Origin: Patescibacteria group bacterium
GTDB lineage: Bacteria; Patescibacteriota; Microgenomatia; Daviesbacterales; UBA10151
Reading direction: 5' to 3'
Assembly (NCBI GenBank): GCA_943356485.1
Contig: CALRFD010000001.1
Location: forward strand, 137,716 to 201,715
Length of the DNA stretch: 64,000 nucleotides
Shown here: piece by piece, positions 30,996-31,310 of the stretch
Layout: every line of letters begins with the position of its first letter
Position numbering within the stretch: the stretch's first letter is position 1
Position numbers and translations under genes: made by a program
Notes under the pieces: generated by a model
The model's input: the letters and a program-made list of their open reading frames with translations, nothing else
What the model was told of the DNA's origin: nothing
Databases searched by the model: none

Positions 30996-31310
30996 ATGGC
31001 AGAAAGATTAAATGAAGAACAACTAAGACATATGGTAGGTCAAATCGAAAGTAGAATGGGTGATTTAGCGGAGTTTAGAAATTCAGCTGCTTTAAGTCCT
31101 GATTCTGGTGTGCAAGCTAATTTACATAGATTAGGTATTGCAAGAACAGTACTGCTGGCAGCGCTAGGAGAAGTAGATTTAGATATTGCGCTTGAGCCTG
31201 ATGAAATGTATGACAAAAGTTCTCGGGTACTAAGGTTTAGACCATTAGGTGAAGCAATAGAAGAACCAGATACAAGAGCGATTTTTTTAGAAAGAGAGAT
31301 AAATAGTTAA
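30996..31310 (+). CDS. Hypothetical 104-aa protein inserted between groES and groEL.
   Basis: Both junctions are tightly packed as TAA-T-ATGGCA. No motif recognised. Confidence 0.5.

Follow-up and report, generated by a model that had tools for sequence, protein, structure and literature searches.

The groES and groEL genes form the textbook invariant two-gene operon. In phage T4, the seg and mob genes are free-standing homing endonuclease genes located between or in conserved genes, and Dassa et al. reportedly described, in 2009, Vsr-like or NUMOD-containing endonucleases of 'fractured genes'. In the full-text literature that we searched, whose coverage is incomplete, we found no account of CPR bacteria with genes located between groES and groEL. 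Here, we analysed a 64-kb stretch of DNA (the window) in which a 104-amino acid (aa) ORF separates the two chaperonin genes, together with the corresponding slot in related genomes.

Like GroES/Cpn10 and the phage co-chaperonin T4 Gp31, the product of the focal ORF is a small protein encoded beside groEL. Unlike these, it has no Cpn10 similarity (the PF00166 domain was absent in Pfam searches at E ≤ 1), a normal groES is already present, and its predicted fold is a helical alpha-hairpin, not a beta-barrel with a mobile loop. The slot as a whole resembles the variable gene-content hotspots that lie between core genes and phage 'morons', with fixed conserved flanks, patchy orphan small genes and signs of mosaic exchange. 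In contrast to those hotspots, it lies inside an essential and almost universally bicistronic operon, and its inserts are all co-directional and chained stop to start, with a common M-A/T-E beginning. The one to four promoterless small ORFs in series behind one upstream promoter are reminiscent of integron cassette arrays, but the slot junctions are translational (stop-start) and are not recombination sites. We found neither attC-like palindromes nor other inverted repeats around the focal ORF (30850-31450), and no integrase among the gene calls or precomputed Pfam matches of neighbouring genes in the loci examined. Terminal inverted repeats of the IS or MITE type were also absent at the focal ORF, though a direct repeat is present. 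A further gene, found at this position in loci L170-L174, is like free-standing homing endonuclease genes in occupying one precise conserved target (the first codons of groEL), in its patchy distribution, in being as conserved as the host gene and in preserving host expression. Unlike an intron or intein, this element, for which cleavage is predicted, restores groEL by means of a Shine-Dalgarno sequence and an ATT start codon. The focal ORF differs from homing endonuclease genes in that it has no nuclease or DNA-binding similarity, nor is it recognisable as what is left of an endonuclease gene.

In the window, groES (30671-30994; 107 aa; Pfam Cpn10, E = 3e-28), the focal ORF (30996-31310; ATG start) and groEL (31312-32931; 539 aa; Pfam Cpn60_TCP1, E = 4e-71) follow one another on the + strand, chained by TAA-T-ATG junctions. 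Both junctions read TAA-T-ATG-GCA. A TTG start at 30608 given for groES in the ORF listing was rejected as spurious; a 107-aa gene is called at the groES position in locus L002. GroES and GroEL are full length and ordinary, and GroEL is 81-86% identical to that of Candidatus Daviesbacteria MAGs (Patescibacteria/CPR). The first-pass annotation had drawn attention to an ORF splitting an otherwise adjacent groES-groEL pair, and this is borne out, as in close relatives such as L006 (TAAaatATGGCAAAA junction) the gap is only 1-5 nt. The focal ORF is a genuine protein-coding gene. Its product is acidic (pI 4.7), and the predicted model (pLDDT 69.5) has a helical hairpin at the N-terminus (residues 2-30 and 39-56) and, after it, a small and ill-defined beta region. 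The possibility that it is a diverged copy of groEL or groES was rejected, with protein z-scores of about -1 and no DNA likeness to either gene past the first 21 nt.

The ORF had been described as an orphan, which is correct as far as Pfam (E ≤ 1), NCBIfam and PHROG are concerned, none of which gave a match, but a handful of remote homologues exist. A word-seeded search of 5.8 billion clusters found the focal ORF itself only. Three of these (E 2e-6 to 1e-3) emerged when 1.8 billion representatives were searched exhaustively with HMMER (phmmer), and a fourth came from a profile search (profile E 1e-34 to 1e-46). The resulting family, here called X, has six members: five homologous clusters among the 5.8 billion (the window ORF and P0002-P0005) and one from a metagenome contig (L156_133). 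Within the family, local jackhmmer gave E-values of 7e-26 or better. All six are encoded between groES and groEL on the same strand, in genomes that are Daviesbacteria-type throughout, and wherever the contig is long enough the operon is preceded by MurB and followed by bPH_2 and an M23 peptidase, as in the window. Two alignments (A1 and A2) define a conserved core at residues 42-70 (31119-31205, + strand), N-I-S-R-L-G-I-A-R-x-V-L-L-A-V-L-E-G…A-L..D-E, in which N42, R45, L46, G47, A49, L53, L57, A65, L66, D69 and E70 are invariant. The focal ORF thus belongs to a real but tiny new family that is position-locked and lineage-restricted.

We also assembled two sets of 80 loci, one around groEL in species-representative genomes and one around groES in metagenomes, and defined the Daviesbacteria-type clade by a GroES at least 60% identical (71 non-redundant loci). 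In the 69 loci outside the clade, groES and groEL are a median of 36 nt apart and never more than 171 nt; inside it, the distance varies between 1 and 1,529 nt. Of the 71 clade loci, 28 have an empty slot, in which the genes are adjacent with a junction of the type TAAaatATGGCAAAR, and the uninterrupted junction contains …TTGGAGTAAAATATGGCAAAGATATTAAAATTTGA…. Five further loci have a short, non-coding insert (81-128 nt, no ORF of at least 60 aa). In the other 38, more than half of the clade lineages sampled, the pair is split by one to four co-directional orphan ORFs (one ORF in 28 loci, two in 8, three in 1 and four in 1). Gaps of at least 190 nt have a median coding fraction of 0.97, and 26 of the 29 gaps of single-ORF size are filled, against 0.02 expected from shuffles.

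Blastp clustering divides the slot ORFs into about 40 mutually unrecognisable families, which iterated profile searching (jackhmmer) did not join. No known anti-phage defence protein or toxin-antitoxin was recognised among 41 representatives: none had a PADLOC match, and the only two Pfam matches were weak and non-specific, the best Pfam and PHROG E-values being 0.003 and 0.0015. No slot ORF recurs elsewhere in the loci or the window. The encoded proteins average 113 aa and are hydrophilic, with a pI below 6 for 33 of 48, and the GC3 of 0.25 (overall GC 0.40) is typical of resident coding sequence. On a neighbour-joining tree of the chaperonins, which is rough and not robust in detail (about 216 residues), slot content is patchy and the X-family members are scattered. 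The nearest neighbours of the window on this tree are L127, with a 3-nt gap, and L104 and L141, with unrelated ORFs. A three-gene groES-x-groEL arrangement, which the first-pass annotation suggested seeking in relatives, thus does exist, but x is usually a different protein. Taken together, these data point to a hypervariable groESL cassette slot specific to one CPR clade.

Unrelated slot ORFs resemble one another in places. An M-[AT]-E start is found in 27 of 49 slot ORFs, compared with 1 of 241 flanking genes, and nucleotide likeness between unrelated slot ORFs is confined to 'start modules' of 17-50 nt. The window ORF and L132_85 (MTERLTERQLR), for example, share such a module and then diverge. 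The peptide motifs LSIREYIGAL and D-R/K-P-A-D-x-x-GGHEI recur at differing positions in unrelated slot ORFs. That slot ORFs are frameshifted versions of one another was rejected, as blastn and tblastx show known families and the start modules only.

Several minor features of the slots were also recorded. REP/MITE-like, GC-rich hairpins (…GTCATCCTGAGGGCGAAGCCCGAAGGATC… and similar) replace or adjoin the slot ORF in L004 (3880-4001), L101, L103, L150 and L090 (4892-5000), and three of the five short non-coding inserts are REP-like (raw loci L004/L103, L101 and L150). An AT-rich module, GTATAAAGTATTATGTATCAAGTATAAAGG, with internal repeats GTATAAAG / GTATTAAG, recurs upstream of the first slot ORF, as the first ~40 nt that follow the groES stop, in L086, L132, L162 and L163, whose slots are otherwise unrelated. 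When L097 (3832-4035) is compared with L130 (468-704), dS is about 0.57 for the slot ORF, and about 1.5 and 1.2 for groES and groEL, respectively, which hints at a cassette exchange more recent than the divergence of the flanks. In L013, groEL falsely looked truncated in the automatic comparison; this is a record artefact, caused by a run of N (an assembly gap) at about 4100-4115.

Upstream of the operon, a CIRCE-like inverted repeat, CTAGCACCA-N9-GTTTGCTAA, can be read from the sequence at 30598-30624 (+ strand), with a TTGACA -35 box embedded in it (30608-30613) and a possible -10 box, TATAAC, at 30632-37. The copy in the window is degenerate (5 mismatches to TTAGCACTC-N9-GAGTGCTAA); copies lie at the same position in L094, L086, L005 and others, and some relatives have better ones, of which that of L094 is the best with 2 mismatches (TTAGCACCC-N9-TAGTGCTAA). 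A repeat with at most 5 mismatches is present in 38 of 59 clade loci. It is a probable HrcA-type heat-shock operator combined with the operon promoter, and heat-shock regulation of the operon is presumed from it. Neither a promoter or terminator above background nor an Rfam/RNA element was detected inside the operon.

The organisation of the junctions suggests translational coupling. The last codons of groES, TTG GAG AAC TAA, contain a GGAG Shine-Dalgarno sequence (30985-30988) 7 nt upstream of the focal ATG. There is no good Shine-Dalgarno sequence upstream of groEL in the window, and groEL translation is therefore probably dependent on termination-reinitiation. Tight junctions are a property of the clade: the first slot ORF begins a median of 4 nt after the groES stop, and the groEL ATG follows the last slot-ORF stop at a median distance of 3 nt (at most 15 nt in 35 of 36 slots). 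The candidate coupling signal consists of a stop codon, 1-5 A/T bases and ATG-GCA, followed by A-rich codons.

The same junctions carry a direct repeat. The 10-mer TAATATGGCA occurs exactly twice in the window, at the two ORF junctions, where 0.25 copies are expected and two were reached in 4 of 100 shuffles. The match extends to an imperfect direct repeat of 21 nt, identical at 18 positions, with a spacing of 316 nt that equals the ORF length plus one. The left copy, TAATATGGCAGAAAGATTAAA (30992-31012, + strand), covers the groES stop, 1 nt and the start and first codons of the ORF, and the right copy, TAATATGGCAAAAATCTTAAA (31308-31328, + strand), covers the ORF stop, 1 nt and the groEL start. 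The annotation had correctly placed the beginning of the left copy at 30992; the right copy, given as 31305, starts 3 nt further on, a minor slip. On structure the annotation is largely right. Its broader proposal, that an insertion duplicated the original groES-groEL junction, is favoured by the 21-nt repeat bracketing the ORF and by the start-capturing insertions described below. It fares less well clade-wide, where codons 2-9 of slot ORFs match their own groEL start at an identity of 0.36, compared with 0.33 for control genes (p = 0.02). This likeness is marginal beyond ATG-GCA, so much of the apparent 'duplicate' may be shared translational-coupling architecture. Part of the start likeness probably reflects a shared coupling or initiation signal and not duplication, and since the repeat is only 18/21 nt, a convergent coupling signal could mimic duplication.

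Insertions that capture and duplicate the groEL start do occur at this site in related loci, as seen in those with an endonuclease-type gene and in L013. In L170, a 234-aa Cys-rich ORF begins with the ATG and first six codons of groEL (MAKILK), to which it is fused, and beyond its stop the groEL frame resumes. Loci L171/L172, L173 and L174 likewise have an endonuclease-type gene between groES and groEL (L170 4208-4912; L171 3001-3687; L173 3001-3723; L174 1043-1756), inserted at the first codons of groEL. All four independent loci follow a common design. The inserted ORF uses the original groEL start, capturing the ATG and first 2-7 codons; its 3′ end (…LKGG, DNA AAAGGAGG) forms a strong Shine-Dalgarno sequence, and groEL restarts 7-8 nt after it at ATT-CCT/TCT-AAR. 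In some genomes of the clade, a predicted mobile endonuclease gene has thus taken the groEL start codon and supplied a replacement. In L013, the two slot ORFs are separated by what is left of a groEL start (MAKLIFDD…).

The family of the L170 ORF numbers more than 320 proteins and has an invariant P-D-F…A-I-E-V-Y…H-K motif; many of these relatives have NUMOD3 (PF07460) or are named very-short-patch-repair endonuclease in their source records. The slot proteins themselves gave no significant match to Pfam or, by profile, to PDB sequences, and their nuclease activity and homing are predicted from this kinship. Close relatives of the L170 ORF begin MAKILKF…, MAKILKS… or MAKQLK…, and metagenomes contain more than 40 clusters of the gene at 60-77% identity. 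Between loci, the endonuclease-type protein is 63-73% identical, GroES 52-75% and GroEL 66-85%; an element as conserved as GroEL suggests horizontal spread. Among all loci, only L170-L174 carry the gene, and tblastn (E ≤ 10) revealed neither the gene nor a remnant of it anywhere in the window, which makes its link to the focal ORF circumstantial. The same search rejected the idea that slot ORFs are decayed endonuclease genes.

We consider it most probable, at roughly 60%, that the focal ORF is a coding gene of a small, lineage-restricted family occupying a hypervariable groES/groEL slot, with a captured start and a dispensable accessory product. According to this reading, a single CIRCE-type heat-shock promoter would drive transcription of groES, the ORF and groEL together. 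Its translation would be coupled to that of groES through the GGAG sequence and the TAA-T-ATG junction, and its own TAA-T-ATG junction would pass ribosomes on to groEL. Such a chain would tie synthesis of the protein to that of the chaperonin, and the amounts of the two would probably be similar. By analogy with the endonuclease loci, we infer an insertion origin, in which DNA inserted at the first codons of groEL reused the groEL start context and left the 21-nt duplicated junction. An insert would survive only if its frame stays open, shares the direction of the operon and ends directly at the groEL ATG, because others would cut off groEL translation. The homing-endonuclease-type gene that has its home at the site could plausibly bring about repeated breaks there, with their repair and horizontal exchange. 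Against this explanation, we found no source for the inserted slot sequences.

The function of the product is the least certain part. It is predicted to be a dispensable, stress-co-expressed, small, acidic and soluble alpha-hairpin protein under moderate purifying selection, most likely a passenger co-expressed on heat shock. Since lineages across the clade can do without the gene, and unrelated ORFs can take its place, a lineage-specific accessory or passenger role is favoured over that of a core chaperonin cofactor. To call the product a 'dispensable accessory protein' says little about what it does, and it may have a specific role related to the chaperonin.

A more far-reaching suggestion, which we offer tentatively, is that the slot acts as a gene nursery. 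DNA captured at a homing-endonuclease-targeted site, inside an operon that ranks among the most conserved and most strongly expressed, would be transcribed automatically and would have to be read through for groEL to be made, so that selection would filter inserts into dozens of new, abundant small proteins, the product of the focal ORF among them. Some of these would then gain functions and pass between lineages.

A considerably less likely alternative to the main reading is that the slot ORFs are functionless spacers, kept open only since groEL translation needs ribosomes to read through. The extreme diversity of the slot, with orphans in every case and tight junctions nearly everywhere, fits this, as do the small, hydrophilic and acidic products expected of 'harmless' peptides. 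For alignable pairs of slot ORFs, X family included, dN/dS is ~0.15-0.5, compared with 0.02-0.18 for groES and groEL of the same genome pairs, all values being rough because dS is near saturation. The slot ORFs therefore evolve under a constraint several-fold below that of the chaperonins, in keeping with a spacer; the same values, clearly below 1 where measurable, indicate purifying selection at the protein level. The 29-residue X core is also strongly conserved between lineages whose GroEL proteins are only about 76-86% identical. Together, dN/dS and the conserved core argue against a purely functionless spacer. Finally, the five loci with 81-128-nt non-coding inserts, and L095, in which a 191-nt gap has no ORF of 60 aa or more, show that non-coding inserts are tolerated and that translation through the gap is not strictly required.

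The first-pass annotation favoured a different role, that of a candidate co-chaperone, substrate or regulator. The corresponding explanation, a dedicated chaperonin partner (co-chaperone, adaptor, regulator or obligate client) whose stoichiometry is fixed by translational coupling, seems improbable to us. A gene inside the operon with 1-nt junctions, always at this position in six lineages and with a conserved core, is what such a partner would look like, and the LSIREYIGAL and D-R/K-P-A-D-x-x-GGHEI motifs, which lie in disordered tails, could dock a common partner. Set against this, 28 of 71 clade loci and all 69 loci outside the clade lack the gene, and about 40 unrelated families use the same slot. 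The chaperonins of the window are both full length and ordinary. The predicted structure of the 104-aa product, proposed as a check, is a generic alpha-hairpin that matched only other generic helical hairpins and no chaperone-specific fold. Support for the co-chaperone idea is weak, because most relatives do without the gene, and those nearest to the window have either no slot ORF or an unrelated one.

Equally improbable in our estimation is a single ancient, very fast-evolving groES-x-groEL gene that has diverged beyond recognition and been lost many times. The slot ORFs are alike in size and character, with common M-A/T-E-R/K N-termini and start modules, and X evolves 3-5 times faster than groES, a rate at which homology would fade quickly. 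Iterated profile searching nevertheless linked no families, sister lineages have unrelated ORFs or none, and the shared modules sit at differing positions, N-terminal in one ORF and C-terminal in another. Slots with 0 to 4 ORFs, REP-like elements or an endonuclease gene show that real insertions occur. The last alternative, that an ORF with no known domain and no annotation is a chance reading frame or assembly artefact, is effectively refuted by the identical locus assembled independently in three other samples, by the homologues at the same position and by shuffling, as only 1 of 20,000 shuffles had a forward ORF across at least 90% of the 317-nt gap.

For gene callers and operon-based annotation, real genes should be expected at the groES/groEL junction in Patescibacteria, and metaproteomics has a defined set of targets in the X family and its slot-mates. 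If the proposed coupling filter is true, the slot would be a natural, repeated experiment in the origin and persistence of small proteins under forced high expression, and would show how a selfish element can live in an essential operon without killing it.

The idea that variability is a general property of the neighbourhood proved only partly true. The MurB-groES gap upstream mostly contains one conserved gene of ~290 aa. The groEL-bPH_2 gap downstream (18 to 998 nt in relatives) is an ordinary accessory-gene hotspot, with ORFs on either strand that have ordinary N-termini and include PIN/antitoxin-like and YjbQ-like examples, as judged by eye from N-terminal sequences. In the window, a 217-aa orphan ORF (MAEFKSIF...; 32939-33592, - strand) with no Pfam match lies in this gap, convergent to groEL. 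A second small orphan ORF of 59 aa, MAERLENIGSRF... (27923-28102, + strand), is among the genes called in L001; Pfam gave no significant match to it. The stop codon 4 nt upstream of it belongs to a 519-aa ORF resembling, by eye, an acyl-CoA synthetase. It opens with the same 15 nt as the focal ORF, ATGGCAGAAAGATTA, and the 'MAER start module' may thus not be confined to the groESL slot.
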